64,000 bases of DNA from an uncultured Chthonomonadaceae bacterium (GCA_964519955.1 CAZFLM010000013.1:33238-97237); one strand, 5' to 3'. Shown: positions 4,641-60,818, counted from the first letter of the stretch. Made by a program: numbers and translations. The notes: a model not told the origin generated them from the letters alone.

Positions 4641-4646
4641 TGGTGC

Positions 4647-10806: not shown

Positions 10807-10829
10807 CCCACCCATCGGAGGGCGGCAGA

Positions 10830-12128: not shown

Positions 12129-12422
12129 ATGGATTCCCTGATCGCTAGTCTCTACGTGTTCGTGTTGGCAACCTTCCTCGGCTTCGAGGTCATCCGCCGC
12201 GTGTCGCCGCTGCTGCACACGCCGCTGATGTCGCTCACGAACGCGATCTCCGCCATCAGCCTCGTCGGGTCCATCGTGATCCTCGGCGAGCAGAAGAGCA
12301 CGCTGACGATGGTCCTCGGCGCGCTGGCGGTCACCGCCTCCACCATCAACGTGGTCAGCGGCTTCCTCATCACCGACCGCATGCTCAAGATGTTCAAGAA
12401 GCGCGACCCGAAGAAGTCGTAG
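12129..12422 (+). CDS. pntAB: NAD(P) transhydrogenase subunit alpha part 2 (membrane)
   Basis: 97-aa hydrophobic ORF (LHTPLMSLTNAISAISLVGSI) lying between pntAA and pntB. Confidence 0.9.
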   Translation: MDSLIASLYVFVLATFLGFEVIRRVSPLLHTPLMSLTNAISAISLVGSIVILGEQKSTLTMVLGALAVTASTINVVSGFLITDRMLKMFKKRDPKKS

Positions 12423-12443: not shown

Positions 12444-13838
12444 GTGCAACAGACCTTCACCCAGATAGCCTATCTGATCGCCTCCGCTCTCTTCGTGCTC
12501 GCCCTGAAGTGGCTGAGCGCGCCGGCCACCGCTCGCAAGGGCGTATGGGCTGGCGAGATCGGCATGGTCCTCGCGATCGTCGGCACGCTCCTGCTGCCGG
12601 AGATCGTCGCGTTCCACTGGATCATCGTCACGATCCTCATCGGCACGGCCATCGGCATCCCCATCGCCATCCTGATGCCGATGACGGCCGTCCCGCAGCG
12701 GACCGCGCTGTCGCACTCGTTCGGCGGCCTGGCCGTGGGCCTCGTCGGCGCGGCGGAGTACTACCTCTGGCTCTCCGAGGGCGCCGCCTCGATCTCCCAC
12801 TTCAAGATGGGCGTCGTCTCGTTCGAGGTCATCCTGGGCTTCCTCACGTTCACCGGCTCGCTGATGGCGTTCGGCAAGCTGCAGGAGCTGCTGCCCACCC
12901 GGCCGATCACGTACAAGGGCCAGAACTTCGTCAACTTCGTGCTGTTCGGGATCGCCCTGGCGGCCGGCGTGTGGCTGACCATCGATCCCTCGCAGTCGCT
13001 GCTCTTCCCACTGCTGATCGCGCTCTCGCTGACATTCGGCGTGCTGCTGATTATCCCGATCGGCGGGGCCGACATGCCGACGGTCATCTCCCTGCTGAAC
13101 TCCTACGCCGGGCTCTCCGCCTGCGCGATGGGCTTCGTGCTGGAGAACAAGCTGCTGATCATCGCCGGCGCCCTGGACGGCTCGTCCGGGTTCATTCTCT
13201 CGGTCATCATGTGCAAGGCGATGAACCGGTCCTTCACCAACGTGCTGTTCGGCGCGTTCGGCCAGGTCCAGCAGAAGGCGATCGGCGCAAAGGAGGAGCG
13301 GACGGTCCGCAGCGCGAGCCCGGAGGAAGCCGCCGCGATCCTGGAGACCTCGCAGACCGTCGTGGTGGTGCCGGGCTACGGCATGGCGGTCGCCCAGGCC
13401 CAGCACAAGGTGCGCGAGCTGTACGACGCCCTCACGAAGCGCGGCGTGGACGTGAAGTTCGGCATCCACCCGGTCGCGGGACGCATGCCGGGCCACATGA
13501 ACGTGCTGCTGGCCGAGGCCGACATCCCCTACGACCACCTGCTCGAGATGGACGAGATCAACCCCGAGCTGCCGCACACCGACACGGTGCTCATCATCGG
13601 CGCCAACGACGTGACCAACCCGGCGGCGCGCACGGACCAGAGCAGCCCGATCTACGGCATGCCGATCATCGACGTCGACAAGGCGCGCACGGTGATGGTG
13701 ATCAAGCGGAGCATGAGTTCCGGCTTCGCGGGCATCGACAACGAGCTGTACTACATGGACCGCACCATGATGCTCTTCGGCGACGCCAAGGCGTTCGTCG
13801 GCGAGATCGTCAAGGAACTGGCGGCCAACAAGGACTGA
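12444..13838 (+). CDS. pntB: NAD(P) transhydrogenase subunit beta
   Basis: 464-aa ORF with a polytopic N-terminal half. The C-terminal dIII motifs are VVVPGYGMAVAQAQ, HPVAGRMPGHMNVLLAEA and GANDVTNPAA. Confidence 0.9.
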   Translation: MQQTFTQIAYLIASALFVLALKWLSAPATARKGVWAGEIGMVLAIVGTLLLPEIVAFHWIIVTILIGTAIGIPIAILMPMTAVPQRTALSHSFGGLAVGLVGAAEYYLWLSEGAASISHFKMGVVSFEVILGFLTFTGSLMAFGKLQELLPTRPITYKGQNFVNFVLFGIALAAGVWLTIDPSQSLLFPLLIALSLTFGVLLIIPIGGADMPTVISLLNSYAGLSACAMGFVLENKLLIIAGALDGSSGFILSVIMCKAMNRSFTNVLFGAFGQVQQKAIGAKEERTVRSASPEEAAAILETSQTVVVVPGYGMAVAQAQHKVRELYDALTKRGVDVKFGIHPVAGRMPGHMNVLLAEADIPYDHLLEMDEINPELPHTDTVLIIGANDVTNPAARTDQSSPIYGMPIIDVDKARTVMVIKRSMSSGFAGIDNELYYMDRTMMLFGDAKAFVGEIVKELAANKD

Positions 13839-19356: not shown

Positions 19357-20424
19357 ATGCCCGACCTTCCCCTGAACCAGATCCTGCTCGGCGACTGCGT
19401 CGAGCTGATGAACGCCCTGCCGGAGAAGTGCGTCGACCTCGTCTTCGCCGACCCGCCCTACAACATGCAGCTTCGCGGCGACCTGCTGCGCCCCAACCTG
19501 ACGGAGGTCGACGCAGTGACCGACGAATGGGACCAGTTCGGTTCCTTCGCGGATTACGACGCCTTCACGCGCGAGTGGCTCAGCGCGGCACGGCGCGTGA
19601 TGAAGGACACCGCGACGCTGTGGGTCATCGGCACCTACCACAACATCCACCGCGTCGGCGCCATCCTGATGGACCTGGGCTTCTGGATCCTGAACGACGT
19701 GGTGTGGGTGAAGGCGAACCCGATGCCGCAGATGAAGGGCGTCCGGTTCTGCAACGCCCAGGAGACGCTCATCTGGGCTAAGAAGAGCGAGAAGGCGTCC
19801 GGCTACACGTTCCGCTACCGCGACATGAAGTCAGGAAACGAGGACGTGCAGATGCGCTCCGACTGGTACATCCCGCTCTGCACCGGGCCCGAGCGCGAGA
19901 CGGTGAACGGGACCAAGGCGCACTCCACGCAGAAGCCCGAGGCGCTCCTGCACCGCGTCCTGGCCTCCACGTCGGAGCCGGGCCAGATCGTCCTGGACCC
20001 CTTCTGCGGCACGGGCACAACGGCGGCCGTGGCGAAGCGCCTGGGCCGCGACTTCATCACCATGGACCGCGACGCGGGCTACGTGGAGGTCGCGCGCAAG
20101 CGGCTCGACGCGATCGCGCCCACGCTGTTCGGCGCGGACGCGACGCTGCACATCGACGCGCCGAAGCCACGGGTCGCGTTCGCGCAGCTCGTGGAGGAGG
20201 GCAAGCTGCCGCCTGGCACGGAGCTGCGGCTGCGCAAGAAGGACGTGCGCGCCACGGTGAACGAGGATGGGACGATCACCGCCGACGGCGTGCGCGGCTC
20301 CATCCACCGCATGGGCGCTCGCTGCCTGGGCACGCCCGCCTGCAACGGCTGGGAGCATTGGCTCTACGAGGCCTCGCCCGGCGACTGGGTTGCCATCGAC
20401 GCGCTGCGGCCGTCGGCGGTGTGA
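19357..20424 (+). CDS. ccrM: CcrM-like beta-class N6-adenine DNA methyltransferase (orphan)
   Basis: 355-aa ORF that is collinear by eye with Caulobacter CcrM: GDCVELMNALPEKCVDLVFADPPYNMQLRGDLLRP, WDQFGSFADYDAFTREWL, WVIGTYHNIHRVG, GFWILNDVVWVKANPMP, MRSDWYIPLCTG, KAHSTQKPEALL, LDPFCGTGTT. It also has the CcrM-type C-terminal domain (GSIHRMGA..PACNGWEHW). Confidence 0.85.
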   Translation: MPDLPLNQILLGDCVELMNALPEKCVDLVFADPPYNMQLRGDLLRPNLTEVDAVTDEWDQFGSFADYDAFTREWLSAARRVMKDTATLWVIGTYHNIHRVGAILMDLGFWILNDVVWVKANPMPQMKGVRFCNAQETLIWAKKSEKASGYTFRYRDMKSGNEDVQMRSDWYIPLCTGPERETVNGTKAHSTQKPEALLHRVLASTSEPGQIVLDPFCGTGTTAAVAKRLGRDFITMDRDAGYVEVARKRLDAIAPTLFGADATLHIDAPKPRVAFAQLVEEGKLPPGTELRLRKKDVRATVNEDGTITADGVRGSIHRMGARCLGTPACNGWEHWLYEASPGDWVAIDALRPSAV

Positions 20425-31821: not shown

Positions 31822-32002
31822 TCCAGCCTCCACGTCTCACGACAAAAGTAACCGGCGTTGTGCGACCGCCGGTGCAGTCCGAGTATACCGTACTCCCAGG
31901 CAGGTGACCAATGGTCCCATTGCGGGTCCTTGGCAGCCTCCCGAAGGGACTGTATAATGGGGGCGTATGGGCAGGCTGCCGCGCGATAGCCGGGAGGCAA
32001 CG

Positions 32003-32683
32003 ATGGACGCCGTCTTGGACCCGATCATCCGCTCGCCGAGGTTCTCGATGTACATGAAGATGCTGGCAGAGTACTCCGCCGACGAGGCGCAGCGCCGGGA
32101 GCGCTTCTACGACGAGATAACCGAAGACCAGAAGGCCGAGTTCATCAACGGGGAGATGACCGTGCAGTCACCTGCCAAGCACCAGCATGGAGTTGTTGCG
32201 GGGCACATCTACAAGGTCCTGGGCACGTACGCCATCGCGCAAGCGTGTGGGCACGTCGCCTGCGAGCAGGCGCTGGTCTGCCTCACCCGCAACGATTACG
32301 AACCGGACGTCTGCTTCTTCCGCAAGGAGGTCGCATCGACCATCGTGCGCGGCCAGATGCGCTACCCCGCACCCGATCTGGTCATAGAGGTGCTGTCCCC
32401 GAGCACGGAGCACATCGACCGCGGCGTGAAGTTCGAGGACTATGCGGCGCACGGGGTCACCGAGTACTGGATCGTCGACCCGGACGCCGAGACCATCGAG
32501 CAGTACCTTCTCGCGGATGGCGCCTACGGCTTGGCGCTGAAGGTGCGCGACGGAGCCTTCGACAGCGTGGCGATGCCCGGTCTCCGCTTCCCCGTCCGCG
32601 CCGCCTTCGACGACGAAGCATGCCTGGCGGCGCTGCGGGAGATCCTCTTGAGTAGCGAGGAGCGACTAGCGGGAAGCGAGTAG
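32003..32683 (+). CDS. Uma2-family (DUF820) putative endonuclease
   Basis: GGGAGG lies 6 nt before the ATG at 32003. Family pattern: EFINGEMTVQSPAKHQHG, PDVCFF, PDLVIEVLSPST, YAAHGVTEYWIVDP. Confidence 0.8.
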   Translation: MDAVLDPIIRSPRFSMYMKMLAEYSADEAQRRERFYDEITEDQKAEFINGEMTVQSPAKHQHGVVAGHIYKVLGTYAIAQACGHVACEQALVCLTRNDYEPDVCFFRKEVASTIVRGQMRYPAPDLVIEVLSPSTEHIDRGVKFEDYAAHGVTEYWIVDPDAETIEQYLLADGAYGLALKVRDGAFDSVAMPGLRFPVRAAFDDEACLAALREILLSSEERLAGSE

Positions 32684-43544: not shown

Positions 43545-45812
43545 ATGCTAGCCGCTCGGATCGCCCTCACTGCCGTCGCTCTGCCGCTGGCGCTGAACTC
43601 CTGCTCCGCCCAGCCGCCTGCCGCCGCATCGAAGTGGCAGCCCGTCGGCCTGTCGGGCGGCGGCGGCATGTTCTCGCCGGCCATCAGCCCCGCCGACCCG
43701 CGCGTCATGATGGTCAACTGCGACATGAGCGCCGCTTACATCAGCGCGGACGGCGGCCTCACCTGGCGCATGATCCACTACAGCCAGCTCCGCTCGAACA
43801 CGCAGTGCCGCCCGGCGTTCCACCCCACCGACGCCAAGACCGTCTACGCAGCAAACGGGTGGGACGGGCTGAAGGTGAGCCACGACCAGGGCGTCACGTG
43901 GGCCAAGGTCGGCCAGGGGCTGCCAGGCGACCTGCGCGGCGCCATCCTCATCGACGCGCGCGACCCGAGCCGCATGCTGGCGGGGGCTGGCGAGAGCGTC
44001 TACCGCTCCGGCGACGCCGGCAAGTCGTGGAGCAAGTGCGAGGGCCCGCAGGGCGCGGTGCTGGGGCTGCACTTCGACCAGGCGAAGCGCTCTACGCTCT
44101 ATGCCGGCACCCCGCAAGGCGTCTGGCGCTCCGACGACGGCGGCGCGACGTGGGCGCGGAAGACGACCGGCATCCCAGCGGGCGGGATCACCTCATTCTC
44201 CGGCGGCTCGAACGCGAGCAGCGGGAAGGCGGCCCTCTACTGCACCGTGCCTCGCAAGGAGGCCGGAGGCGGCTGGACGGGCGGCGTCTACCGGTCGCCG
44301 GACCGCGGCGAGACGTGGCAGAACGCGAACGGGACCGGGCTGAACCTGGAGACCAAGGCGTTCGACGAGTGGGCCGAGGGGCCGGTCGCTCAGTACACCT
44401 GGGTGACCGCGAACGACGCGCGGCCCGAGACCGTGTACGTGTTCAACTCGAACACCGGCATTCCGCCGCCGCACCACTGCTCCTGCTACCGCTCGGACGA
44501 CGCCGGCCAGACGTGGCGCGCGAGCTTCCAGGCCGATCCGCGCTGGCAGCCCTCCAACGTCGAAGCAGACTACACCGTCGCGGTTGACGGCCAATACTAC
44601 CAGTCGGTCCCCCTCGGCGTAGCCATCGCGCCGAACACGCCCGATGTGCTGATGACGGTGGACGCGGGCAACTGCTTCGTCACGAGGGATGGCGGCAAGT
44701 CGTGGCAGTGTGCCCACACGCGTCGCGCTCCGGGCAGCGGCACGCAGGGCGAGGAGCCGCGCTGGGTTTGCACCGGCCTCGTCGTCACGACCACCTGGAA
44801 CTACTATGTCGACCCATTCGACCCGAAGCGCCACACGATCTGCTACACGGACATCGGCTTCGCGCGCTCGCTGGATGCCGGCAAGACGTGGTGCTGGTGG
44901 GCGCTGAAGGGCCGCGCGCCCTGGCGCAACACGTGCTACGAGCTGGCGTTCGACCCGACCGTCAAGGGGAAGCAGTGGGGCGCCTTCTCGAACGTGCACG
45001 ACATTCCGAACGACAACATCGTCTCCGGGCGGCACAACGCGCGCGGGCCGGGCGGCGTGTGCGTCAGCACGGACCACGGCGCGACGTGGCGCGTTTCGGG
45101 CGAGGGGCTGCCGGTGGCGCCCTGCACGGGCGTTGTGGTCGACCCGAAGAGCCCCGCAGGCGCCCGCACGCTGTACGCCGGCTTCTTCGGCCAGGGCGTC
45201 TACCGGTCGATGGACGACGGCAAGACGTGGGCGGCCTGCAATGAGGGGCTCGGGGCGGCGAGCAACCGCCGCGTCTGCCGCGTTGCGCTGCACCCGGACG
45301 GCACGCTCTTCGCGCTGGTGACGGCGCTGCGCCAGAACGGGCGCTTCACGGCGGACGGCGTCGGCCTCTACCGCTCGCGCGACAAGGGCGCCTCCTGGGA
45401 ACTGGTGACCCGCTCGAAGCCGCTCTGGTGGCCCAAGGACTTTGCGGTGGACCCGCGCGACAGCCGGGCCATCTACGTCGGCGCGGCGGACGCCAACCGC
45501 GAGGAGCAGGGCGGCCTCTACCGCACCACGGACGGCGGCGCGACCTGGGCTCGCCTGACGCGCCAGGGCCCCGAGCACTTCGGCGCGTACCTGCACCCGA
45601 AGCGCGCTGGCTGGATCTACGCCACGCTGACCGAGGGCGCGCCGGGCGCAGGCCTGTGGCTCAGCAAGGACAACGGCACCACATGGAAGCCCATGGCCGG
45701 CCTCCCCTTCAGCAACGCCCAGCGCGTCACCTTCGACCCCGCCGACCCCGACACCATCTACGTGACGACGTTCGGCGGCAGCGTGTGGAAGGGGCCGGCG
45801 TCGGAGGAGTGA
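43545..45812 (+). CDS. Secreted BNR/Asp-box repeat protein (double beta-propeller, GH74/sortilin-like)
   Basis: GAGGAGGA lies upstream of the ATG at 43545, followed by a lipoprotein-like signal (LALNSCSA). I counted 13 Asp-box motifs of the form S/TxDxGxT/SW (SADGGLTW, SHDQGVTW, SGDAGKSW, SDDGGATW ... SKDNGTTW). Confidence 0.75.
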   Translation: MLAARIALTAVALPLALNSCSAQPPAAASKWQPVGLSGGGGMFSPAISPADPRVMMVNCDMSAAYISADGGLTWRMIHYSQLRSNTQCRPAFHPTDAKTVYAANGWDGLKVSHDQGVTWAKVGQGLPGDLRGAILIDARDPSRMLAGAGESVYRSGDAGKSWSKCEGPQGAVLGLHFDQAKRSTLYAGTPQGVWRSDDGGATWARKTTGIPAGGITSFSGGSNASSGKAALYCTVPRKEAGGGWTGGVYRSPDRGETWQNANGTGLNLETKAFDEWAEGPVAQYTWVTANDARPETVYVFNSNTGIPPPHHCSCYRSDDAGQTWRASFQADPRWQPSNVEADYTVAVDGQYYQSVPLGVAIAPNTPDVLMTVDAGNCFVTRDGGKSWQCAHTRRAPGSGTQGEEPRWVCTGLVVTTTWNYYVDPFDPKRHTICYTDIGFARSLDAGKTWCWWALKGRAPWRNTCYELAFDPTVKGKQWGAFSNVHDIPNDNIVSGRHNARGPGGVCVSTDHGATWRVSGEGLPVAPCTGVVVDPKSPAGARTLYAGFFGQGVYRSMDDGKTWAACNEGLGAASNRRVCRVALHPDGTLFALVTALRQNGRFTADGVGLYRSRDKGASWELVTRSKPLWWPKDFAVDPRDSRAIYVGAADANREEQGGLYRTTDGGATWARLTRQGPEHFGAYLHPKRAGWIYATLTEGAPGAGLWLSKDNGTTWKPMAGLPFSNAQRVTFDPADPDTIYVTTFGGSVWKGPASEE

Positions 45813-45872
45813 GATGGGCTGGCGGCGCGGGAACGGCGGGTCTTGCGCCCTATGGGTCGCCGGAGTATGGTG
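45704..45872 (+). repeat. Direct repeat copy A = native 3' end of BNR gene plus ~60 nt downstream
   Basis: AGCAACGCCCAGCGCGTCACCTTCGACCCCGCCGACCCCGACACCATCTACGTGACGACGTTCGGCGGCAGCGTGTGGAAGGGGCCGGCGTCGGAGGAGTGAGATGGGCTGGCGGCGCGGGAACGGCGGGTCTTGCGCC... recurs with a few substitutions at 46406 and 47334. Confidence 0.8.
45843..45871 (+). promoter_or_regulatory. Sigma70-like promoter candidate for hicB/hicA cassette
   Basis: TTGCGC (45843-45848), a 17-nt spacer, then TATGGT (45866-45871). It lies within the repeated segment. Confidence 0.35.
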
Positions 45873-45913
45873 GTACTGGCATCGCGCGTCAGGCCCGGAG
45901 GACACCCAGCAGC

Positions 45914-46120
45914 ATGAATGAGCCCAACACCACGTATCGAGCCGTCATCCATCGAGAGCCCCAGGGCGGCTACTGGGGAGAGGTCCCCGAACTGCCAGGC
46001 TGCTTTTCGCAGGGCGACACACTCGACGCGATCTACAGCAACCTGACCGAGGCCGTGGCATGCCACCTGGGTGTAGACCAAGTCGGGGTGCGCATCGGCG
46101 TTCTTGAGATGGCGGCGTGA
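45914..46120 (+). CDS. hicB: HicB-family antitoxin (short, UPF0150 type)
   Basis: MNEPNTTYRAVIHREPQGGYWGEVPELPGCFSQGDTLDAIYSNLTEAVACHL. This is the in-frame tail of ORF 45428..46120. Confidence 0.75.
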   Translation: MNEPNTTYRAVIHREPQGGYWGEVPELPGCFSQGDTLDAIYSNLTEAVACHLGVDQVGVRIGVLEMAA

Positions 46121-46319
46121 AGTCCGTCACCGGGGCTCGGTTCTGCAGGGCCCTGCGCCGCAACGGGTGGTCGCGCCTGCGCACGGCGGGGAGCCACCAG
46201 ACATGGGCCAGGACCGGCTACTCCAACGTCACTGTCCCGGTGCATGCGGGGCGAGACCGCCCCAGGGTCTGTTGGCGGCGCTGCTCAGACACACCGGCCT
46301 CTCAGAGGACGATCTCTGA
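46117..46319 (+). pseudogene. hicA: HicA-family toxin interrupted by an apparent 1-nt deletion
   Basis: The GTG at 46117 overlaps the hicB stop (GTGA). Frame 1 gives MKSVTGARFCRALRRNGWSRLRTAGSHQTWARTGYSNVTVPVHAGRD. The expected C-terminus PPQGLLAALLRHTGLSEDDL* is in the -1 frame (ORF 46104..46319). The frames switch near 46255-46262. Confidence 0.6.
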
Positions 46320-46405
46320 AAGCTGGCGCTGCGAGCCCCCCCGGAACTCCTCCGACTGAGCGGCGCGCTAGGCCCCCCGGCGTGCGCCACCGCCTTCCTC
46401 CTCAC

Positions 46406-46506
46406 CAGCGCGTCACCATCGACCCGGCCGACCCCGACACCGTCTACGTGATGACGTTCGGCGGCAGCGTGTGGAGGGGGCCGGCGTCGGAGGAGTGAGA
46501 TGGGCT
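46406..46506 (+). repeat. Direct repeat copy B (gene 3'-end remnant); its downstream part resumes at 46586-46640
   Basis: CAGCGCGTCACCATCGACCCGGCCGACCCCGACACCGTCTACGTGATGACGTTCGGCGGCAGCGTGTGGAGGGGGCCGGCGTCGGAGGAGTGAGATGGGCT. After the 81-bp element it continues as CGGCGCGGGAACGGCGGGTCTTGCGCC, as in copy A. Confidence 0.8.
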
Positions 46507-46585
46507 AGCCTGGATCATGCACGAGTGCAGTGGTGGGATGGGCCTCCGTGCCCGTCCGGTGCGACTCATGAATAGGTCAGGCTAG
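46505..46585. repeat. 81-bp CTAG-bounded palindromic REP/MITE-like element, copy 2 (inserted into repeat copy B)
   Basis: CTAGCCTGGATCATGCACGAGTGCAGTGGTGGGATGGGCCTCCGTGCCCGTCCGGTGCGACTCATGAATAGGTCAGGCTAG. The terminal inverted repeat is CTAGCCTG/CAGGCTAG. The element is absent from the otherwise matching sequence in copy A (45812-45830). Confidence 0.75.
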
Positions 46586-46605
46586 CGGCGCGGGAACGGC
46601 GGGTC

Positions 46606-46634
46606 TTGCGCCACTAGCCGCCTCGGAGTATAGT
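46606..46634 (+). promoter_or_regulatory. Sigma70-like promoter candidate for second TA cassette
   Basis: TTGCGC (46606-46611), a 17-nt spacer, then TATAGT (46629-46634). It is homologous in position to 45843-45871. Confidence 0.35.
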
Positions 46635-46732
46635 GGAGTGGACGCACGCGCGAGCAGGTGGGAGTTACCTGTCGCCGAGAGGACTACACGGCCACGGGTG
46701 CCTGGCCACGATCGGAGCGCGAGGGAGCGGCC

Positions 46733-47017
46733 GTGCGTATCGTCGGAGTGGTGTGGCTCGACCAGGTGGTCGACAAGCTCGAGTCGAAGCACGGCGTGAT
46801 GGCCAACGAGGTGCTCGAGGTGCTTGAGCAGCGCCCCTGGTTCCGCTTCGTGGAGAAGGGACACCGGTCCGGTGAGGATGTGTACGCGGCGCTTGGCCAG
46901 ACGGTGGCCGGCCGCAAGCTGATCGTGTTCATCGTCTACAGACATGACGCGCAGGCTCTCATCGTGTCGGCGCGGGACATGACACATGCGGAGCGAGCCC
47001 AGTATGACCGAAGGTGA
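46733..47017 (+). CDS. BrnT/DUF497-like toxin
   Basis: The GTG at 46733 follows GAGGGA. The translation is VRIVGVVWLDQVVDKLESKHGVMANEVLEVLEQRPWF..DVYAALGQTVAGRKLIVFIVYRHDAQALIVSARDMTHAERAQY. It matches the W-D..K..KHgV..E / G..L.V / SARdmt..Er..Y pattern. Confidence 0.6.
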   Translation: MRIVGVVWLDQVVDKLESKHGVMANEVLEVLEQRPWFRFVEKGHRSGEDVYAALGQTVAGRKLIVFIVYRHDAQALIVSARDMTHAERAQYDRR

Positions 47018-47270
47018 GAGCCAGGTCTCGAAGGGGTCCAGCTACGAGGCGATAGGCGAGTACTGGGATGCACACGAACTCGCCAACGTGCTCGTGCAGA
47101 CTGAGCCTGCCGAGTTCGAGGTCGACATTCGGTGGCAGCTCCACTACGTCGCACTGGAGACGGACCTCTCCGAGCCGCTCAGATTGTGCGCCGCGCGCCA
47201 TGGCGTTTCGCCCGACGTGCTCGCCAATCAGTGGCTCAGGGAGCGCCTCGCGCAGGACTCCGCACGCTAG
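47004..47270 (+). CDS. Antitoxin (BrnA/CopG-like, C-terminal RHH-like)
   Basis: The ATG at 47004 overlaps the toxin end by 14 nt. The translation is MTEGESQVSKGSSYEAIGEYWDAHELANV..EFEVDIR..VALETDLSEPLRLCAARHGVSPDVLANQWLRERL. Confidence 0.55.
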   Translation: MTEGESQVSKGSSYEAIGEYWDAHELANVLVQTEPAEFEVDIRWQLHYVALETDLSEPLRLCAARHGVSPDVLANQWLRERLAQDSAR

Positions 47271-47333
47271 CCCGCTCATCCGGCAGCCCAATCCAAACGT
47301 GCCCCGATGCGCGCTGGGTTCAGTCCGCCGCCA

Positions 47334-47443
47334 CCCCCTGCAGCAACGCCCAGCGCGTCGCGTTCGACCCCGCCGACCCCGACACCGTCTACGTGGCGAC
47401 GTTCGGCGGCAGCGTGTGGAGAGGACCGGCGTCGGAGGAGTGA
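47334..47443 (+). repeat. Direct repeat copy C (gene 3'-end remnant)
   Basis: CCCCTGCAGCAACGCCCAGCGCGTCGCGTTCGACCCCGCCGACCCCGACACCGTCTACGTGGCGACGTTCGGCGGCAGCGTGTGGAGAGGACCGGCGTCGGAGGAGTGA. It would encode ..SNAQRVAFDPADPDTVYVATFGGSVWRGPASEE*. Confidence 0.8.
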
Positions 47444-47540
47444 GGGGGCCGGAGCGAGCCCAACACGCATGCCGCCGATCGAGTGTGGCAATTCTCCGTA
47501 CACCGTGGTATGATGCACCTGGTGAAGAAGGAGGACGGGC

Positions 47541-47837
47541 ATGGACGCTGCATCGGCCAGTTCGGCGCGGGTGGACTTCAGGACGACACGCGAGACGAAG
47601 CTGCTCATCGAGCGTGCAGCCGCGTTGCTGGGCATGACGGTGAGCGAGTACGCAAAGGCGTCGCTGGTTGCCCGCTCGAACGAGGTGATACGCCACCATA
47701 CCACCCGCACACTATCCGATCGCGACCGAGACGCCTTCCTGGAGTTGCTCGACGCGGAGACAGCGCCATCGGCTGAGTTGAGCGCCGCCGCCCGATCGTT
47801 CCACGCTTCGGAAGCCGCCGGCGAGATCGTACCGTGA
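47541..47837 (+). CDS. DUF1778 (TacA-like) RHH antitoxin
   Basis: 98-aa ORF reading VDFRTTRETKLLIERAAALLGMTVSEYAKASLVARSNEVI..LSDRDRDAFLELLD. Confidence 0.8.
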   Translation: MDAASASSARVDFRTTRETKLLIERAAALLGMTVSEYAKASLVARSNEVIRHHTTRTLSDRDRDAFLELLDAETAPSAELSAAARSFHASEAAGEIVP

Positions 47838-48349
47838 CGCCCATCCGCATCGAGCGTCTGAGCAAGGCACACGTGAGGGACGCCTTCGACTGCGGAGAGC
47901 CGTCCCTTGATCTGTTCATCCGCTCGATCGCACGGCAGCACGACGACCGCGGCCTCGGACGTACATTCGTCGCCGTCCGCGAGGGATCACCAGTCGTGCT
48001 GGGCTACTACACGCTCGCCGTCGGCAAGGTGGCGTTCGAGCATGTGCCGGAAGCACGCAAGCTGCCGCGCATCCCTATCCCGGTGGTGCTCCTGGGGCGC
48101 CTCGCTGTCGACCGCACGGCACAGGGCGCGGGCCTGGGCGAGACACTGCTGATGCACGCGCTGTGGCGAACGCTGCGGATCGCGGACCAGGCAGGCGTGT
48201 ACGCGGTCGAGGTCGACGCCGTCAGCGAGCCGGCTGTCCGCTTCTACCGACGGTATGGATTCACCCCGTTGCTGGACGATACGAGACACCTCTATCTGCC
48301 GATGAAGGTGATCCGGGCGCTCGACCTGGAGAGCCGCGTCCACGACTAG
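47834..48349 (+). CDS. GNAT-family acetyltransferase toxin (TacT/AtaT-like)
   Basis: The GTG overlaps the antitoxin stop (GTGA). Diagnostic stretches: IERLSKAHVRDAFDCGEPSLDLFI, LGYYTLAVG, VVLLGRLAVDRTAQGAGLGETLL, AVEVDAVSEPAVRFYRRYGF. Confidence 0.85.
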   Translation: MTPIRIERLSKAHVRDAFDCGEPSLDLFIRSIARQHDDRGLGRTFVAVREGSPVVLGYYTLAVGKVAFEHVPEARKLPRIPIPVVLLGRLAVDRTAQGAGLGETLLMHALWRTLRIADQAGVYAVEVDAVSEPAVRFYRRYGFTPLLDDTRHLYLPMKVIRALDLESRVHD

Positions 48350-48506
48350 GCGCCTCGACCCCAGCGCGCAGAGCGGGCGCAGGACATCGCGCATCGGCCC
48401 AGCGTGTGCGGCGGCTTGGTGCGCCCCACCCCAACGCAGGAACCCGCCCGCCGCGCATCGAACGTTCAGCCGGGGGGGCGCTTGGTCGTGACCCCGTCGA
48501 GCGCCC

Positions 48507-50498
48507 GTGCGTGCCGTGACGCCAGAGGCTGCGACTGTCACCAGATCGACCCCGCGCCGACCTTCGGCGCTGTCCCTCCGCGCCGTCTTCCTGGGCCTCA
48601 TCCTCACCGCCGTCGTCGACCTGTGGCTCCACTGGGCCGAGCTGGTGCTGGGCGGACGCGGCCACACGGCCCTCGCGGGCACCAGCATCCCCGTCGGCGC
48701 GTTCAGCGTGCTGTTCGTCGTGGTGACCATCAACCTGCTCGTTACGCGGTTCGTCAAGCCCCTCGCCTTCACCCGCGGCGAGATCCTGGTCGTCTACGTG
48801 ATGATGACCGTCTCGACCGTCATCTCCAGCTCGGGCGGGCTGCACTTCCTCATCCCAACCATCACCGCGGCGTTCTACTACGCCGACACCAGCAACCTCT
48901 GGGCCACCAAGTTCCACTCGGTCATCCCGGACTGGATCGCGCAGAAGGACAAGCACGCCCTCTACGGCTTCTACGTCGGCAACAGCAGCGTGCCCTGGGC
49001 CGCGTGGCGCATGCAGATGCTCGCCTGGGTCGTGTTCATGGTGCTTGTCGCGCTGGCGACGCTGTGCGTGGTCGCCATCCTGCGCCGGCAGTGGATCGAC
49101 CGCGAGCGGCTCGCCTTCCCCACGGTCGCGGTGCCCGTCGAGATGATCCGCGACGGGGCCGGCTTCTTCTCGAACCGGGTGCTGTGGATCGGGTTCGCCC
49201 TCCCGTTCTGCATCAACGTGATCAACACGATCCACCTGAACGTTCCGACCGTCCCCTATCTGCCAACGCGCTCCGACCAACTGCCCGACCTGCTGCAGTT
49301 CATGGACTCGCCTCCCTGGAACGCCATCGGGTCGACGCGACTGTCGCTCTATCCGTTCGTGATCGGCATCGCATATCTGCTGCCTGTCGACATGATCTTC
49401 AGTTGCTGGTTCTTCTATGCGTTCACCAAGGCGGAGGAGGTGTTCGGCTCCGCGAGCGGCATCACCGCGGGAGCGGCCGGCGGCGCGCAGAGCGTGTTCC
49501 CGTACATCGGGCACCAGGGCGCTGGGGCGTTCGCGGCCATCACCATCGCCGGGCTCTGGCTGTCGCGGGCGTACCTGGCCGAGGCGTGGCGGACGGGCTT
49601 CGGGCGTAAGGATCAGCGCGGCGGCGACTCGGACGAACCGATGTCCTACCGCGTCGCCTTCATCGGCCTGTTCCTGTGCCTGGGCGCGCTGGTCCTGTGG
49701 CTCTGGATGGCGGGGATGCGCGCGTGGGTGGCCGTCGTCGCGCTGGGGATCTCGTTCCTCTACATGATCGCCGCGGCGCGCATCCGGGCGGAGACGGGCA
49801 ACGCCTGGCTGTTCGGACCTGACGTCGACGCCTACAAGGTGATGACGACCACGTTCGGCACCTCGATCTACACGACGGCCGACCTGACCATCCTGGCTTA
49901 CCTGCGGAGCGCGATCGCGAGCTGGGACCTGCGCTGCCTGTCGATGCCGAACCAATCCGACGCCTACAAGATGGCCGACGCGCTGGACGTCAACAAGCGG
50001 CGGCTCACCCTCGCGCTCATCGTGGCGATCGTCCTAGGCATCGCGGTCTCCTTCGCCATCGCCCTGATGATCTGGTATGCGTTCGGCGCGGGCGCCAAGA
50101 CCGACACGTGGCGCACCTATATGGGCCGGCAGCCCTTCGATCAGCTCTCGGACGCGATGGGCACGCCGATCAAGGGCGACCTCAGCGGCACGTTCGCCAT
50201 CGGCGCGGGCTTCGGCATCACGGCGCTCCTGCTGTTCATGCGGTCACACTTCATCTGGTGGCCGTTCCATCCGATCGGTTACGCCATCGCCAACACGAAC
50301 ACGATGAACCAGGTGTGGCTACCCTTCTTCATCGCGTGGCTCGCGAAGGTGCTCGTGCTACACTACGGCGGCGCGCGCCTCTACCGCCGGTCGCTGCCCT
50401 TCTTCTACGGGCTGATCCTGGGCGACACGCTCTCGGGCGGCCTCACCACGGCTGTCGGGTGCTTCACCGGCGCCAACATCTACCCGACGAACTGGTAG
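48507..50498 (+). CDS. Large polytopic membrane protein, hypothetical
   Basis: 663-aa ORF with more than 12 hydrophobic segments throughout. No catalytic motif was recognised. The GTG start is uncertain. Confidence 0.65.
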   Translation: MRAVTPEAATVTRSTPRRPSALSLRAVFLGLILTAVVDLWLHWAELVLGGRGHTALAGTSIPVGAFSVLFVVVTINLLVTRFVKPLAFTRGEILVVYVMMTVSTVISSSGGLHFLIPTITAAFYYADTSNLWATKFHSVIPDWIAQKDKHALYGFYVGNSSVPWAAWRMQMLAWVVFMVLVALATLCVVAILRRQWIDRERLAFPTVAVPVEMIRDGAGFFSNRVLWIGFALPFCINVINTIHLNVPTVPYLPTRSDQLPDLLQFMDSPPWNAIGSTRLSLYPFVIGIAYLLPVDMIFSCWFFYAFTKAEEVFGSASGITAGAAGGAQSVFPYIGHQGAGAFAAITIAGLWLSRAYLAEAWRTGFGRKDQRGGDSDEPMSYRVAFIGLFLCLGALVLWLWMAGMRAWVAVVALGISFLYMIAAARIRAETGNAWLFGPDVDAYKVMTTTFGTSIYTTADLTILAYLRSAIASWDLRCLSMPNQSDAYKMADALDVNKRRLTLALIVAIVLGIAVSFAIALMIWYAFGAGAKTDTWRTYMGRQPFDQLSDAMGTPIKGDLSGTFAIGAGFGITALLLFMRSHFIWWPFHPIGYAIANTNTMNQVWLPFFIAWLAKVLVLHYGGARLYRRSLPFFYGLILGDTLSGGLTTAVGCFTGANIYPTNW

Positions 50499-53700: not shown

Positions 53701-53971
53701 CCGAGAGAAGCGTGACGAGATCGTGTTCGTCGTGCTCGACCTGACGATGCCGAACATGGACGGCGCCGAGGCATTCGCTGCGATTCGGGCGATGGACCCC
53801 GACGTCAAGGTGGCGCTGGCGAGCGGGTACAGCGGCGAGGACATCACCTCCCGCTACCCGATGGAGGGCCTGGCGGCCGTTATCCAGAAGCCCTATACCC
53901 TCCGGGCGCTCCGCGAGGTGGTCGCCAAGCTCGTCACCGAGGGCCAGCCCCGCGACGCGTCGCCGTCCTAG
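50714..53971 (+). CDS. Hybrid sensor histidine kinase (GAF, multiple PAS, HisKA, HATPase, receiver)
   Basis: 1085-aa ORF with repeated PAS-like blocks (..YRARHADGSWRWHTS.., ..YRVRHADGTWRWHTS..). H-box is GGIAHDFNNILMAVLGHADL, N-box is LLLNAAEAI, and G-boxes are VDSGCGMD and GRGLGLAAV. The receiver region reads VLLADDEDTVR..DLTMPNMDG..K. An alternative ATG start is at 50723. Confidence 0.85.
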   Translation: MTSMPPCGTPAPEVLGRILLLQGAVHAEPDDERLAEMITTGLLDLPGVTGAALCHDGAVLAQAGDAPNPSQRCLLVGRVCNEACEASVEGAVRLPLRGSRRSYGALFLAVGDQRAFEPYRQFLENTAHLVALVMENREQSEQLMAMNRNLERQVAARTESLERELCERQRLERALRHSEQRSRDVIESLNEGVVLLNREWCVETANAEAASILGITAEALIADLSVLADWVAYREDGTAYLPAELPWAVTLSTGVGMRDQVMHVHAPGGRTTWVSVSTNPLFAPDDLTPEAVVVSFADVTKRKQAEDALIASERFLRQTQEIARIGGWKVNPHTDYLEWTEGVYQIIGVPPGRRLGLAEALAFYLPKYIPVLRERLVRTLETGEPFVEECEVMTVSGEHLWAEVRGLAHVVEGRNAFVVGTFQDITARKRAEAAITESEAKYRALIENTRDLIYRMSSDGLLTFASPSWTVLLGHDIEGVVGSHVHDYVHPDDMPTWRRYLRDVLTRKQELPGIEYRARHADGSWRWHTSTCTPLSDEAGRITEFVGVAHDITERKHAELALAESERQYRLLIENTHEIIYRLSPDYVFTFVSPSWADLLGHRAESVVGVRVRELLHPDDLDPCREKIVRVIEAGERFDNIEYRVRHADGTWRWHTSNIVPLRSGSGKVTGFVGIARDITQRRQADEERQKLEHQIQQTQKLESLGVLAGGIAHDFNNILMAVLGHADLALDALPPLSPAIGNIEQISTAARRAAGLCHQMLAYAGKATYKLEQVDLSILVGEMAHLLRTSVSKKAVLNLHLDEGLPRVKADASQMRQVAMNLLLNAAEAIGDGHGRITVSVGLQQCSEDTLRGMPLREELPPGHYVYLEVVDSGCGMDAATLDRIFEPFYSTKFRGRGLGLAAVLGIVRAHGGGLAVESEPGKGSTFTVLLPALNAEGAAARGEAPPAEPDTQRTGTVLLADDEDTVRSVTAAMLERIGFRVLTASDGREAVEAYREKRDEIVFVVLDLTMPNMDGAEAFAAIRAMDPDVKVALASGYSGEDITSRYPMEGLAAVIQKPYTLRALREVVAKLVTEGQPRDASPS

Positions 53972-54048
53972 CCTGGATCATGCACGAGTGCAGTGGTGGG
54001 ATGGGCCTCCGTGCCCGTCCGGTGCGACTCATGGATAGGTCAGGCTAA
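53968..54048. repeat. 81-bp CTAG-bounded palindromic REP/MITE-like element, copy 3
   Basis: CTAGCCTGGATCATGCACGAGTGCAGTGGTGGGATGGGCCTCCGTGCCCGTCCGGTGCGACTCATGGATAGGTCAGGCTAA. The left CTAG contains the TAG stop of the kinase gene (53969-53971). The right end contains the stop of the convergent gene (54045-54047). Confidence 0.75.
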
Positions 54049-56723
54049 CGTCCGCGCAGCGCGGCCTCCAGCTCCGACAGCCCGGCCGGGCAGACCGCGT
54101 AGTGCACGTGGCTGTCCAGCGCCGTGCCGGGCGCTACCGGGTTGCCGAACAGGTCGAGCACCTGCACCCCCGGAGCGGACGGCAGCTTGTAGGCGGCGTG
54201 GCTGGCGGCGGTCGTGATGGCCGCGACGGCGCCGCGCTGCCCCGAGAAGAGGCAGGCGTGGACGCCGTCGGACAGCGTGATGCGCTTCGCGAAGCCCAGG
54301 TCCTCCGTCAGCCACGCCAGCGCGCTGTGCGCCGCCGAGGTGGGATGCGGGTAGCCGTCCGCCGCGACGAGCGATGTCCACTCCACCGACCCGCCGAACG
54401 TGCTGAACCCGTGCATGGTGTACAGGAAGGCGTGCTTTTCGCCATTCGCGCGCCGGCTGATGACGTACCTGGCAAGCCGATCGGCGAGCCGCCAGTTGTC
54501 GTTCGTGTTCTCGTAGGGTAGCGTGCAGCGGTAGAACCCGTTCGACACGTCGCCCGATAGCGGCGCCCCCTCGCTCATCCACACCGGCTTCGGCACCCGC
54601 CCCACCTTCTCGATAATCGGCCCCATCGCCGAGCGGTACCCCTTCTCCGCCGCATCGCCCGGCATGCCCAGGAGCGACGTCTCGTAGTGGTGGTACGAGA
54701 TGGCGTCGCACGCCTCCAGGCCGCCGCCGTCCAACACATCCCTGGTCCACTTGGAGCCGGTATCCCCGACGAACGTGTTGAAGCCGACGATGGTCACGCC
54801 CGGGTCGGCCTCGTGCGCGGCCGCGTAGGCAACCTTCTGCAGGCGGGCGTAGTCGGCGGGCGCCGTCTCGCTCCGCACGAAGTGCGACAGGTAGTCGCTG
54901 CCTTGCTTCTCGTCGTACCTCCAGCTCCAGAACGACGCGCCCCACGGCTCGTTCCAGATCTCGTAGCTGTCGATCAGGCCCCGGTGGTGCGACACGATCG
55001 CGCGCACGGCGTTGGCCCAGTCCTCCATGCGCAGCGGCTCCAGGTAGCGCTCGAAGTAGCCGGTGCAGGGCTTGCCCCAGTTGCTGGCCCAGCCCGGGCT
55101 GGTGGAGAGAAGGCCCAGGATCTTCAGGTGGTGCTCGCGGTAGCGCCGCAGCTCCGTGTCGTGGAACTGCCACTTACCCTTCTCCGGCTCCAGGAACGAC
55201 CAGCCGATGTACGCGGTGCCGGCATCGTGCAGGCGCACCCAGTTGCAGCCGAACGCCTTCGCCATCGTCAGGTGCCGGTTGGTGGAGAGCGTGTGCGTAC
55301 CGAAGAACGAGTTCGGCGCGTCCTTCGCCCAGTAGCGCGGGCGGTGCAGGCGCTCGAAGACCACCTCGTTCTCCGCGCTCAGCTTCTTGCCCGCGGCGTC
55401 CTCCACCCATGCCTCCAGCCGGTACGGGCCCAGCGGGTGCCGGGCGACTGCGGCCGCGTGCAGCGTCCCACTCCGCACGAGGCCGGCCGTCAGCTTCACC
55501 GGCGGGAGCGCCTTCGCGTCGCCGTACATCGTCACAAGCCGCGCCTTGAGCACCGCGCCGGCCTTCCCGCCCACCACCGCGTAGCGAAACGCGAGCGGCT
55601 CGTCGTCGAACACGACACGGGCGGACGAGGCGCTCGACGGCGCCTGCGCAAGCGAGACCTCGACGGGCTTCTGGGGCGCGAACGGCGAGGCGGCCGCTCC
55701 GTGCTCCACCTGCAGCCCGTCGAACCAGAGCATCCCCTTCCCCTCGATCCGCAGGTGGTGCGCGCGGGCGAGCAGGATGGGCTTGAACGGGAATGCCACC
55801 CGCTGCCACTCCGCGCCGCTGAGCTTGAGCGGGATCTCGCCGCAGTAGCCGCCCTCGCCCGAGCAGACGAGCAGCCGCCCCTGCCACTCGCCGCGCACGC
55901 TCAGGCTTGCCGTGTGGGTCTCGAAGCTCCAGGGCACAGCGAATGGGGCGCTGTACACCAGCACGCCCTCGGGCGCGTCGATCTTGAGCGCGGGCACGCC
56001 GCTCGGGCCGAGCACGCGGGGGCCGGTGTCCACGCGCACCTGGTCGCCGTCCGAGTAGTCGCGGTCGATGGACCAGCCGCTCTGCAGGCCCAGCGGGAAG
56101 CGCGAGAGCTTCACCAGGTTGCCCTTGCCGGCGTCCGGATACTTCGCCTTGATCTCGTCGATCAGGTCCTGGTCCGAGAGCCGGACGAGCTTCAGCTTCT
56201 CGATGTCGAGGGTGCCGTTCCCGGAGAGGTAGATGAAGAGCCCGAGCGGCTCGGACTGGGCCGGCAGGCGGAAGTCGTAGGAGTAGGTGCGCCACGAGGC
56301 GTCCATCGCGGGGCCGGCGGTCCACGGCGAGGAGTAGGGCGGGCCCATGAACCGGATTGCCAGGCTCGCGCCGACGACGCTGCGGGCGGAGAGCGTCAGT
56401 CGGTAGTAGCCCTCGCCCTGGTCCAGGCCCGCGAGCGCGTGGACGAACTGCAGGCCGTCGCCCGAGGTCTGCCGCACGCGCGTGAAGCGCCGCCCGCCCT
56501 CGGCCATCTGCGAGTACTCGGCGACGACCTTCTCCTTCCAGCCGGAGTTGTCGCCCCATCCCTCCGGCAGCGACCCGGTGATGCGGTTGCCCTTCGCCGC
56601 GTCGACATCCGACACCTTGCTGCCGCCCGCGCCGAAGTCGGCGTCGACGAGCACCCGCGGGGCCGCGAGGGCGGCCGCAGGCAGCAGGGCGAGAGCGGCA
56701 GCAAGCCAAGAGCATCGTCGCAT
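54045..56723 (-). CDS. Secreted glycoside hydrolase (clan GH-A-like TIM barrel) with N-terminal carbohydrate-binding-like domains
   Basis: The gene starts at MRRCSWLAAALALLPAAALA (CAT 56721-56723, with GGGAGG upstream). The C-terminal half reads NWVRLHDAG, WSFLEPEKGKW, YEIWNEPW, ISYHHY. The ORF-track extension to 57035 was rejected. The exact GH family was not determined. Confidence 0.7.
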   Translation of the reverse strand: MRRCSWLAAALALLPAAALAAPRVLVDADFGAGGSKVSDVDAAKGNRITGSLPEGWGDNSGWKEKVVAEYSQMAEGGRRFTRVRQTSGDGLQFVHALAGLDQGEGYYRLTLSARSVVGASLAIRFMGPPYSSPWTAGPAMDASWRTYSYDFRLPAQSEPLGLFIYLSGNGTLDIEKLKLVRLSDQDLIDEIKAKYPDAGKGNLVKLSRFPLGLQSGWSIDRDYSDGDQVRVDTGPRVLGPSGVPALKIDAPEGVLVYSAPFAVPWSFETHTASLSVRGEWQGRLLVCSGEGGYCGEIPLKLSGAEWQRVAFPFKPILLARAHHLRIEGKGMLWFDGLQVEHGAAASPFAPQKPVEVSLAQAPSSASSARVVFDDEPLAFRYAVVGGKAGAVLKARLVTMYGDAKALPPVKLTAGLVRSGTLHAAAVARHPLGPYRLEAWVEDAAGKKLSAENEVVFERLHRPRYWAKDAPNSFFGTHTLSTNRHLTMAKAFGCNWVRLHDAGTAYIGWSFLEPEKGKWQFHDTELRRYREHHLKILGLLSTSPGWASNWGKPCTGYFERYLEPLRMEDWANAVRAIVSHHRGLIDSYEIWNEPWGASFWSWRYDEKQGSDYLSHFVRSETAPADYARLQKVAYAAAHEADPGVTIVGFNTFVGDTGSKWTRDVLDGGGLEACDAISYHHYETSLLGMPGDAAEKGYRSAMGPIIEKVGRVPKPVWMSEGAPLSGDVSNGFYRCTLPYENTNDNWRLADRLARYVISRRANGEKHAFLYTMHGFSTFGGSVEWTSLVAADGYPHPTSAAHSALAWLTEDLGFAKRITLSDGVHACLFSGQRGAVAAITTAASHAAYKLPSAPGVQVLDLFGNPVAPGTALDSHVHYAVCPAGLSELEAALRGR

Positions 56724-60209: not shown

Positions 60210-60818
60210 CTACTCCTCGAACAGCGAGGCTACCGGGATCGTGAGGTCGGGGTAGAGACCGGAGGCGGCGGTCTGCGAGTTGGCGTAGACGCCGATCGTC
60301 TCCGGCGCCTCGCCACCCAGGCGCAGCACCTCCACCGTCTCGGCCTCGGGGCTGACGATCCAGCACTCCCGCACGCCGATGCGGCTGTAGTCGGCGAGCT
60401 TGGCCTCCCGGGCGGAGCGCGTCTCGGAGGGAGAGAGGATCTCGACGACCAACTCCGGCGCCGCGACGAGCGGACCGGGGTCGGAGCGGCTCCCGCAGCG
60501 GGCGAGCTGCTCGTTCGAGACGAACAGCACATCCGGCTGGCGCACGCGGAGTGGATCGCGCTCGATCAGGACGTCACACGGAGCGACGATGGCGCGCCCA
60601 ACGCCGGTCCGGCGGCCGAATGCGCGCAGATGCTCAGCGATCACCATCAGCACATCCTGGTGCAGCCTGGTCGGACTCGTCATGGAGATCCTCACACCGT
60701 CCACGATGTCGTACCGCTGCATCAACTCGCCCTCGGCCATGTACTCGTCCCACGTGAGCACGCAGGCAGGACGCCTGGCACGTTGCTGGGGCCTGGTTGT
60801 CGCTGCTGTCGCGGTCAT
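60210..60818 (-). CDS. Uma2-family (DUF820) putative endonuclease, second copy
   Basis: 202-aa ORF reading YDIVDGVRISMTSPTRLHQ, QPDVLFV, PELVVEILSPSE, YSRIGVRECWIVSP. Confidence 0.8.
   Translation of the reverse strand: MTATAATTRPQQRARRPACVLTWDEYMAEGELMQRYDIVDGVRISMTSPTRLHQDVLMVIAEHLRAFGRRTGVGRAIVAPCDVLIERDPLRVRQPDVLFVSNEQLARCGSRSDPGPLVAAPELVVEILSPSETRSAREAKLADYSRIGVRECWIVSPEAETVEVLRLGGEAPETIGVYANSQTAASGLYPDLTIPVASLFEE

Follow-up and report, generated by a model that had tools for sequence, protein, structure and literature searches.

We uncovered a potential case of repeated cassette insertion at the end of a host gene in a stretch of 64,000 nucleotides (nt) from an uncultured Chthonomonadaceae bacterium (GCA_964519955.1 CAZFLM010000013.1:33238-97237), which, in its full 64-kb length, we refer to as the window. 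Here, the 2.7-kb interval between a gene for a BNR/Sortilin-Vps10-type repeat protein and a gene for a DUF6785/DUF6784 membrane protein is taken up by an array of three unrelated type II toxin–antitoxin (TA) cassettes, which alternate with direct copies of the 3′ end of the BNR gene. With a confidence somewhat above even, we interpret this array as the product of serial "insertion with long target duplication" of three unrelated TA cassettes, at least two of which were added successively. Its anatomy is that of this mode of insertion (PMC2853133) and not that of classical att recombination. The mode was described for restriction–modification (R-M) systems (Nobusato et al. 2000 Gene 259:99; Furuta, Abe & Kobayashi 2010, PMC2853133), and the window would show the extension of this still unexplained manner of insertion to TA cargo, iterated at one site. 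The features of the locus are the following:

43545-45812, plus strand: intact BNR/Sortilin-Vps10-type repeat gene, 755 amino acids (aa) from the methionine chosen by the gene caller; proposed target of the insertions
45704-45893, plus strand: copy A, consisting of the functional gene end (45704-45812, stop codon TGA at 45810-45812) and the following segment P (45813-45893)
45914-46120, plus strand: HicB-like antitoxin gene of cassette 1 (Pfam HicB_lk_antitox, 3.8e-09)
46117-46319, plus strand: HicA toxin pseudogene of cassette 1, with a frameshift near 46257
46405-46658, plus strand: copy B, consisting of a displaced gene end with its stop codon (46405-46498) and the following segment P′ (46499-46508 and 46586-46658), the latter split by the next element
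46509-46581, no strand assigned: hairpin-forming element of 73 nt, resembling a miniature inverted-repeat transposable element (MITE) and flanked by CTAG at 46505-08 and 46582-85
46733-47017, plus strand: BrnT toxin gene of cassette 2 (Pfam BrnT_toxin, 1.3e-09)
47004-47270, plus strand: BrnA-type (CopG-like) antitoxin gene of cassette 2, with no direct Pfam match
47335-47444, plus strand: copy C, a displaced gene end in which homology ceases a few bases past the stop codon
47541-47837, plus strand: TacA/DUF1778 antitoxin gene of cassette 3 (Pfam TacA1, 2.7e-15)
47834-48349, plus strand: GNAT (TacT-type) acetyltransferase toxin gene of cassette 3 (Pfam Acetyltransf_7, _1 and _10)
48350-48506, no strand assigned: distal flank lacking a fourth copy of the gene end
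48507-50498, plus strand: DUF6785/DUF6784 membrane protein gene (Pfam DUF6785, 1.6e-151)

Three copies of the end of the BNR gene

The three direct copies of the BNR 3′ end had first been noticed from the bare sequence, and are borne out by blastn alignments in which the last 130 nt of the gene were compared with the window. Copies A and C match over 110 nt at 92.7% identity (45704-45813 versus 47335-47444), or over 118 nt at 91% when copy C is extended without gaps to 47327; A and B match over 102 nt at 95.1% (45719-45820 versus 46405-46506), and B and C over 95 nt at 91.6%. An exact 23-nt core, GACGTTCGGCGGCAGCGTGTGGA, is found three times in the window and not once in 100 dinucleotide-preserving shuffles. 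A repeat search across the whole window returned, as its only substantial repeats, these gene-end copies and one small dispersed element, the gene-end repeat being unique within the 64 kb. Taking the final base of the stop codon as reference, the A/B repeat extends from -94 to +81 and the A/C repeat from -109 to +1; all copies have the terminal ~95 nt of BNR in common.

Copies A and B go on matching past the stop codon as segments P and P′ (45825-45893 versus 46588-46658), with a local score of 37 where shuffles averaged 12 and reached at most 22. That the two share post-stop sequence had been recognized previously, at a length of ~60 nt; the alignment confirms the sharing and revises the length to ~80 nt, which, together with the tail of the gene, brings the A/B repeat to ~175 nt in total. 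A motif in this shared part, TTGCGC-17-TATGGT/TATAGT, had been described as promoter-like, but it failed a simple sigma-70 scan, in which the sole passing site lies upstream of TacA at 47485-47514. The 77-nt gap in copy B is accounted for by the 73-nt element plus a duplicated CTAG. Further copies of this element are present in the window at 4655-4737 (82% identity) and 53968-54050 (98%), a CTAG starting each of them. Given its imperfect terminal inverted repeats and long hairpin fold (z-score -2.9), the element looks like a MITE with a CTAG (YTAR-type) target duplication; it matched no Rfam family, and no transposase was seen in the window. It entered P′ later than the A/B duplication. The copy at 53968 overlaps the TAG stop codon of a gene for a PAS/histidine-kinase protein.

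Past TacT, a search by local alignment found no fourth copy of the gene end, even a degraded one (the distal flank scores 11 against tail plus P, with a shuffle mean of 14.1). Because no copy follows the third cassette, TacAT is not enclosed by repeats. Thus, of the earlier picture of three TA cassettes lying between three gene-end copies, the three cassettes remain, whereas only two of them are truly bracketed.

One rival explanation holds that copies B and C are paralogous or decayed BNR remnants, or that the array is a chimera assembled from strain variants. Its first part draws on the existence elsewhere of pseudogene fragments from the 3′ end of BNR-family genes (L184, L185-188). However, the upstream homology that would be expected of paralogous remnants is not seen: the match ends after ~100-118 nt beside the cassette genes, starting at 46405 and ~47327-47335, only 84 and 64 nt past the stop codons of the preceding cassettes, and copy B shares with A ~80 nt of sequence that is non-coding. 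As for a chimera, contigs of four other sequencing runs contain, at 100% identity, the junctions of the HicA flank with copy B and of the BrnA flank with copy C, and because A, B and C differ from one another they are not copies that an assembler has collapsed or duplicated. Six Logan contigs from four sequencing runs are 100% identical to the window, with the segment BNR-A-HicBA-B spanned by three of them (L001, L168 and L169) and BrnTA-C-TacAT-DUF6785 by two (L165 and L166); since contigs from independent runs carry the same junctions, the array is not an assembly artefact. The Logan contigs that end in the post-stop region of copy B break inside the 73-nt dispersed element. Remnants or a chimera are hence scarcely credible as an explanation of the array.

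An empty site in a relative

An uninterrupted version of the site, in which the BNR gene is followed directly by the gene for the membrane protein, had been named as something that relatives of the bacterium might retain, and one such version exists. In the closest syntenic relative (L003; 78% aa identity for BNR and 88% for DUF6785), the gene order is M48 peptidase, glucoamylase, BNR, 124 bp of intergenic DNA and DUF6785, with the same upstream genes as in the window, and copies A, B and C all align with its single BNR gene end. This supports the view that the L003 arrangement represents the empty site and that the TA block is an insertion at the BNR 3′ end. The linkage of BNR to DUF6785 is kept in L003 only, among 160 orthologous loci. 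The L003 intergenic DNA gave no significant alignment with P, with the BrnT and TacA leaders or with the distal flank 48350-48506, and because it is not alignable the boundaries before insertion are drawn from the repeats alone.

The cassettes further differ from their surroundings in composition, with a GC content at third codon positions (GC3) of 0.80-0.84 against 0.88-0.96 in the neighbouring genes; this lower GC3 suggests a foreign origin. The target gene itself belongs to a widespread family. Its product, which is identical to a database protein (P0001), matches the Pfam models Sortilin-Vps10 (3.9e-34) and BNR (3.7e-26), and has orthologues in Armatimonadota, Planctomycetota and Verrucomicrobiota at 51-78% identity, the names on the closest homologues pointing to Armatimonadota/Chthonomonadales. 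The longest open reading frame (ORF) starts at 43272, as compared with 43545 for the start chosen by the gene caller.

The three cassettes

A different type II TA pair follows each copy of the gene end, as the sequence-only reading had it: Pfam matches, complemented by homology for BrnA, place HicBA after copy A, BrnTA after copy B and TacAT after copy C. By their adjacency and the family models that they match, the three pairs are predicted type II TA modules.

In the first cassette the toxin is broken. The unrepaired ORF (46117-46359) covers positions 3-43 of 58 only in the HicA_toxin model, and with a repair of one frame the match runs from position 3 to 58 (E 3.6e-11). The frameshifted sequence is identical in an independent assembly (L001). 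HicB is intact, and the same HicB protein is called on four independent Logan contigs. As HicA is frameshifted, the HicBA module is probably inactive, and what is left of it is probably an antitoxin-only relic.

The BrnT protein of the second cassette has 119 homologues, of which the best show 66-68% identity, and the homologue search returned no near-identical copy of BrnTA elsewhere. The assignment of the adjacent gene (47004-47270) to BrnA follows from its homology to a member of PF12441: its product is 45% identical (E 2e-29) to that of L170:4272-4535, the partner of the closest BrnT homologue, which in turn matches the CopG_antitoxin model PF12441 at 4.1e-11.

Strain variation at the locus

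A contig from a fifth run (L167) represents a related strain with 97.2% identity and covers only the part BNR-A-HicB. Compared with window positions 44609-46202, its mismatches are concentrated in two dense patches, 44722-44893 and 45269-45491, and across tail, P and HicB it differs at 1 of 711 positions, namely by a G to A change at 45869 that yields the copy B state (TATAGT). Such a mosaic pattern looks typical of frequent homologous recombination, the clustering of the differences pointing to recombination that is active at the locus.

This variation bears on a second rival explanation, in which homologous recombination between strains would have stacked alleles with a single cassette each, in the style of the minimal mobile elements of Neisseria, the crossovers falling within BNR and a non-allelic copy of its tail. 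The mosaic divergence from the 97% strain indicates that recombination is frequent in the population, and the B-type TATAGT in the P segment of L167 suggests exchange between copies. Moreover, transformation makes duplications through interchromatid pairing of repeats (PMC3784515). Nevertheless, neither of the alternative junctions, BNR-BrnTA and BNR-TacAT, occurs among the Logan contigs retrieved, and the origin of the first tail duplication is left unexplained; we regard this scheme as quite unlikely.

Comparable arrangements in other bacteria

To see how often the end of the BNR gene is duplicated, 160 orthologous BNR loci (80 from genomes and 80 from metagenome contigs), of which 137 extend at least 1 kb downstream of the gene, were scanned for a second copy of their own last 130 nt. 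It was present in L034 (= L111) only, and because just this one locus among the 160 was positive, the BNR 3′ end is not a general hotspot. This contig (JBAZOJ010000085.1, from a Candidatus Brocadiia metagenome-assembled genome (MAG) of the Planctomycetota) has 77-nt repeats over the BNR stop codon, at 10429-10505 and 12536-12607 with 88% identity, which bracket a 2-kb insert coding for a Dam-family methyltransferase (10680-11597) and a type II restriction endonuclease (11552-12322). The insert is recognized by PADLOC (MTase_II, 2e-85; REase_II, 1e-53) and by the Pfam/TIGR dam models, and the Pfam scan of ORFs on the 12.8-kb contig turned up no recombinase, three of the six upstream ORFs having no Pfam match. 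By all appearances, this is a textbook case of long target duplication at the end of an orthologous gene in another phylum.

The second analogue came from the metagenome contig with the closest BrnT homologue (66% identity; L170, ENA ERZ25039515 contig_88306, 648-6750). Here it is the 5′ end of a beta-helix gene, from about -20 to +290 relative to the ATG, that is present in three direct copies. A HigB/HigA pair and a gene for an AF2212-like protein lie between copies 1 and 2, which are themselves part of a ~930-nt repeat; BrnT/BrnA and a gene for a fn3/BACON protein lie between copy 2 and the intact gene, the repeats here being ~254-300 nt. Thus, this array seems to mirror that of the window, both in its TA cargo and in its serial nature.

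A baseline for such arrangements was obtained from 2.6 Mb of loci, screened for direct repeats that are 50 nt or longer, are 85% or more identical and lie 0.3-5 kb apart. About 17 loci have such repeats, and most of those inspected, by ORF translations only, look like repetitive extragenic palindromic (REP) sequences or MITEs, or derived from insertion sequences; gene-end duplications around addiction modules were seen only in the window, L034 and L170.

A protein search with the tail peptide returned 11 short proteins, four of which were looked up. Only L181 proved to be a true orphan; L183 is a truncation at the start of a contig, and L184 and L185-188 are pseudogene fragments at contig ends. 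The orphan, a BNR tail of 35 codons at 6733-6837 of JBEEQD010008036.1 (a Phycisphaerae MAG), stands alone, the 6.7 kb upstream of it and the 5.4 kb downstream being free of BNR genes, and adjoins a 169-aa ORF without a family match. Gene loss could have left it behind, or it could have travelled with a cassette that moved.

Two BNR orthologues in other contigs show repeats of a different kind. In the metagenome contig L090, a whole BNR orthologue lies between 252-nt direct repeats (3247-3498 and 5930-6181; 99% identity) that encode what appears, by eye, to be the C-terminal part of a transposase, and the gene may have been moved or captured there. In L014, a sequence of 26-27 nt just past the BNR stop codon recurs (3529-3554, 3590-3616 and 3713-3739) at spacings of 61 and 123 nt, running to the end of the contig, which could be an array resembling REP sequences or clustered regularly interspaced short palindromic repeats (CRISPR).

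Site specificity and mobility genes

Serial site-specific insertion at the gene's 3′ end had been the initial interpretation. Insertion at the 3′ end, two displaced copies and an intact gene are upheld by the above observations, whereas site specificity is not, the boundaries of the repeats being different. The analogy drawn at the same time with integrative elements at tRNA genes and with integron cassettes finds no support either, in view of these differing boundaries, the missing distal repeat on TacAT, the unremarkable conservation of the tail and the lack of a viral attP.

No integrase or transposase was detected by Pfam among the ~50 ORFs of the window that were scanned, which had been picked by third-position GC and of which about 10 have no Pfam match; nor did scans of the 64-kb window find tRNA genes or Rfam families. 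The flanks 3′ of the three cassettes have no common motif and fold no better than shuffles (z -0.3, -0.7 and +1.9). In this respect, the initial statement that the window displays no integrase, transposase or attC-like structure agrees with the Pfam scans and with the folding of the flanks. Synonymous conservation of the tail is not elevated among 148 orthologues, its same-codon fraction being 0.49-0.56 and the mean 0.50, which gives no sign of an embedded recombination site. Viral contigs scanned for the tail pattern as an attP yielded a single match, which is not a BNR gene end.

These results weigh on a third rival explanation, namely that the cassettes are non-autonomous site-specific elements, with an att site in the BNR tail, an attP that includes a copy of the gene end and a recombinase acting in trans, arranged in tandem like cis-mobilizable elements (CIMEs) next to integrative and conjugative elements (ICEs) or like satellites at tRNA genes. 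Several observations are in line with this proposal: every repeat, whether in the window or in L034, covers the same ~95 nt together with the stop codon; insertion has recurred at one place; the orphan 35-aa tail of L181 has a similar left boundary and lies far from any BNR gene, as if carried along; and the mutually incompatible variants of the tails, described below, would fit copies of attP derived from donors. Yet the ORFs scanned with Pfam, in the 64 kb as in the L034 contig, include no recombinase, and the boundaries differ, lying on the left at -94, -109 and about -50 (L034) and on the right at +81, +1 and about +25. Likewise, TacAT is followed by no terminal repeat, the synonymous conservation of the tail is not raised, of the ~137 other orthologous loci that extend 1 kb or more beyond the gene only 1 has a duplicated tail, and no viral contig carries the tail. 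We therefore consider such elements unlikely, though deserving of attention.

A classical att element, with no recombinase found by Pfam, boundaries unshared between events and no terminal copy, was set aside as a candidate, as was an integron cassette array, there being no recombinase, no common motif and flanks that fold no better than shuffles. Modules of the Xer/dif type were dropped with no dif-like sequence visible by eye.

A model for the growth of the array

Insertion with long target duplication is favoured because the repeats are far longer than the target duplications of transposons and their boundaries vary from event to event. It is favoured, too, by the empty site in L003, the uniqueness of the repeats within the 64 kb, the absence of mobility genes from the scans and the unstructured cassette ends, and further by the analogues in L034 and L170, the documented R-M class and the low GC3 of the cassettes. 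In this model, foreign DNA would join the chromosome in such a way that 110-175 nt of target over the BNR stop codon come to flank the insert on both sides. The upstream repeat copy would keep the BNR gene whole and the downstream copy would be left as a dead fragment.

The array could accordingly be envisaged as growing in four steps. TacAT would have reached the gene end first, in an event for which no duplication is visible. Second, the P leader, BrnTA and its flank would have inserted with a duplication of ~110 nt, giving rise to copy C. Third, HicBA and its flank would have inserted just past P with a duplication of ~175 nt of tail plus P, which would have produced copy B and furnished both cassettes with P. 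Finally, the MITE would have landed in the second P and HicA would have gained its frameshift. No recombinase in cis would be needed. The joining step might involve two staggered positions, possibly on sister chromatids; alternatively, a circularised fragment with a copy of the gene end already on it might have entered through one crossover mediated by RecA. Only duplications that include the stop codon, or the start codon and promoter, would leave the neighbouring gene functional, and the repeats would span gene ends because selection keeps those insertions that spare the neighbour.

Several points weigh against this interpretation. Two independent events on the same ~95 nt exceed random expectation, and the same holds for L170; selection does not fully explain the two hits, which is what speaks most for the rival schemes of a recombinase acting in trans and of stacking between strains. 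The third cassette, TacAT, has no duplication at all. The sites that vary among the three copies are incompatible with one another, some having A=B, some A=C and some B=C, and some states specific to B or C are the L003 state; these variants seem to fit gene conversion or tails derived from donors better than a clean duplication followed by drift. The repeats diverge by 5-8%, which implies old events if they were born identical, yet between the window and a strain with ~3% divergence overall, just 1 of 711 positions in A-P-HicB is different. Lastly, the class was defined intraspecifically, and the empty site used here is interspecific, at 78-88% aa identity.

A related possibility, which we entertain as a rather doubtful one, is that the ends of conserved genes serve as portable homology arms in a cassette system free of recombinases, an addiction module (TA or R-M) looping out between two copies and re-entering an orthologous gene end by a single crossover. 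What travels would be a circle or fragment with one copy of the gene end, by which the gene is regenerated and the cassettes are stacked, so that an integron-like array would be built from host homology; this elaboration we deem to be just as doubtful. If true, it would explain why the same BNR end was hit in two phyla, as well as the L181 orphan, the incompatible variants of A, B and C, and the mirror array of L170.

Relation to known systems

The hallmarks that define the class of insertions with long target duplication are an empty site, repeats that exceed 30 bp, an insert shorter than 20 kb and no mobile-element genes; its R-M members, which are of types I-IV, come from many phyla (PMC2853133). 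A 2013 review from the same group ascribes the mode to R-M systems only (PMC3874152). In the window there is an empty site, there are repeats of ~175 nt (A/B) and 110 nt (A/C), and the inserts measure 0.5-1.1 kb, with no Pfam match to mobility genes. The cargo of an R and an M gene is present in L034, and the window has HicBA, BrnTA and TacAT in its place. Since its cargo is TA and not R-M, the window is to be seen as a variant of the class, not as a member of it as first defined. Both the published R-M systems and the window feature a small selfish or addictive unit with no transposase or integrase, which is missing in a relative and flanked by direct repeats of a single target, tens to hundreds of bp long, and some of the published repeats overlap the 3′ end of a gene. 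What sets the window apart is the TA cargo, two nested events that share part of the target, and the interspecific nature of the empty site.

Among other systems, ICEs, integrative mobilizable elements (IMEs) and CIMEs form arrays by tandem accretion at the 3′ ends of tRNA or protein genes, in which non-autonomous members may lack an integrase. As in the window, the gene end is regenerated and displaced partial copies lie between the inserts; unlike these elements, the window has no integrase found nearby, no shared boundaries and no terminal attR-like copy, and its inserts are of 0.5-0.8 kb. Chromosomal integrons are arrays of short, promoter-dependent and unrelated cassettes, often TA modules, in one orientation, but the window has no IntI, attI or attC hairpins, and its separators are copies of the host gene end. 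The orphan arrays of rhs and cdiA genes feature repeated 3′ gene fragments downstream, which are interleaved with small gene pairs and encode new variable toxin tips. In contrast, the window displays near-identical copies of one conserved end, and its toxins are encoded by separate TA genes; rhs/cdi orphan arrays were accordingly rejected as a family assignment. The minimal mobile elements of Neisseria consist of variable cargo, often R-M or TA modules, which lies between a conserved pair of genes and, lacking mobility genes, changes hands through homologous recombination. They differ in replacing one another and in leaving no duplicated gene ends, and alternative alleles were not seen at the locus in the window. 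The concept of these elements is cited within PMC3082526. Full-text literature searches returned no account of TA cassettes with this mode of insertion, nor of any stacked with gene-end copies between them.

The spread of chromosomal TA and R-M modules outside plasmids, phages and transposons has long been a loose end. The link that has been proposed between the R-M class and DNA breaks made by restriction enzymes would not cover toxins that are RNases or acetyltransferases. Because the window and L170 show the same footprint with TA cargo, serially at one site, a mechanism independent of the cargo can be argued for. The window also offers a compact system of three junctions in which circles, excision and dependence on recA could be tested, and duplicated gene ends could be a signature with which to search metagenomes for recently acquired defence or addiction cassettes.

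Other genes in the window

Beyond the array, the Pfam scans of the window recovered housekeeping, signalling and glycoside-hydrolase genes, together with a DNA methylase of an orphan type and two Uma2-family genes. The methylase, an N6/N4 enzyme with a RAMA domain (19357-20424), and the two Uma2-family genes, annotated as "putative restriction endonuclease" (31967-32683 and 60210-60818), are scattered over the window, and none of them adjoins the TA array. A further cluster at 210-9533 codes for three FHA-domain proteins, a VWA protein, a PP2C phosphatase, a Tpt1/KptA RNA 2′-phosphotransferase and a protein that combines DnaJ, Ser/Thr kinase and TPR domains; it looks like a signalling module unconnected with the TA array.

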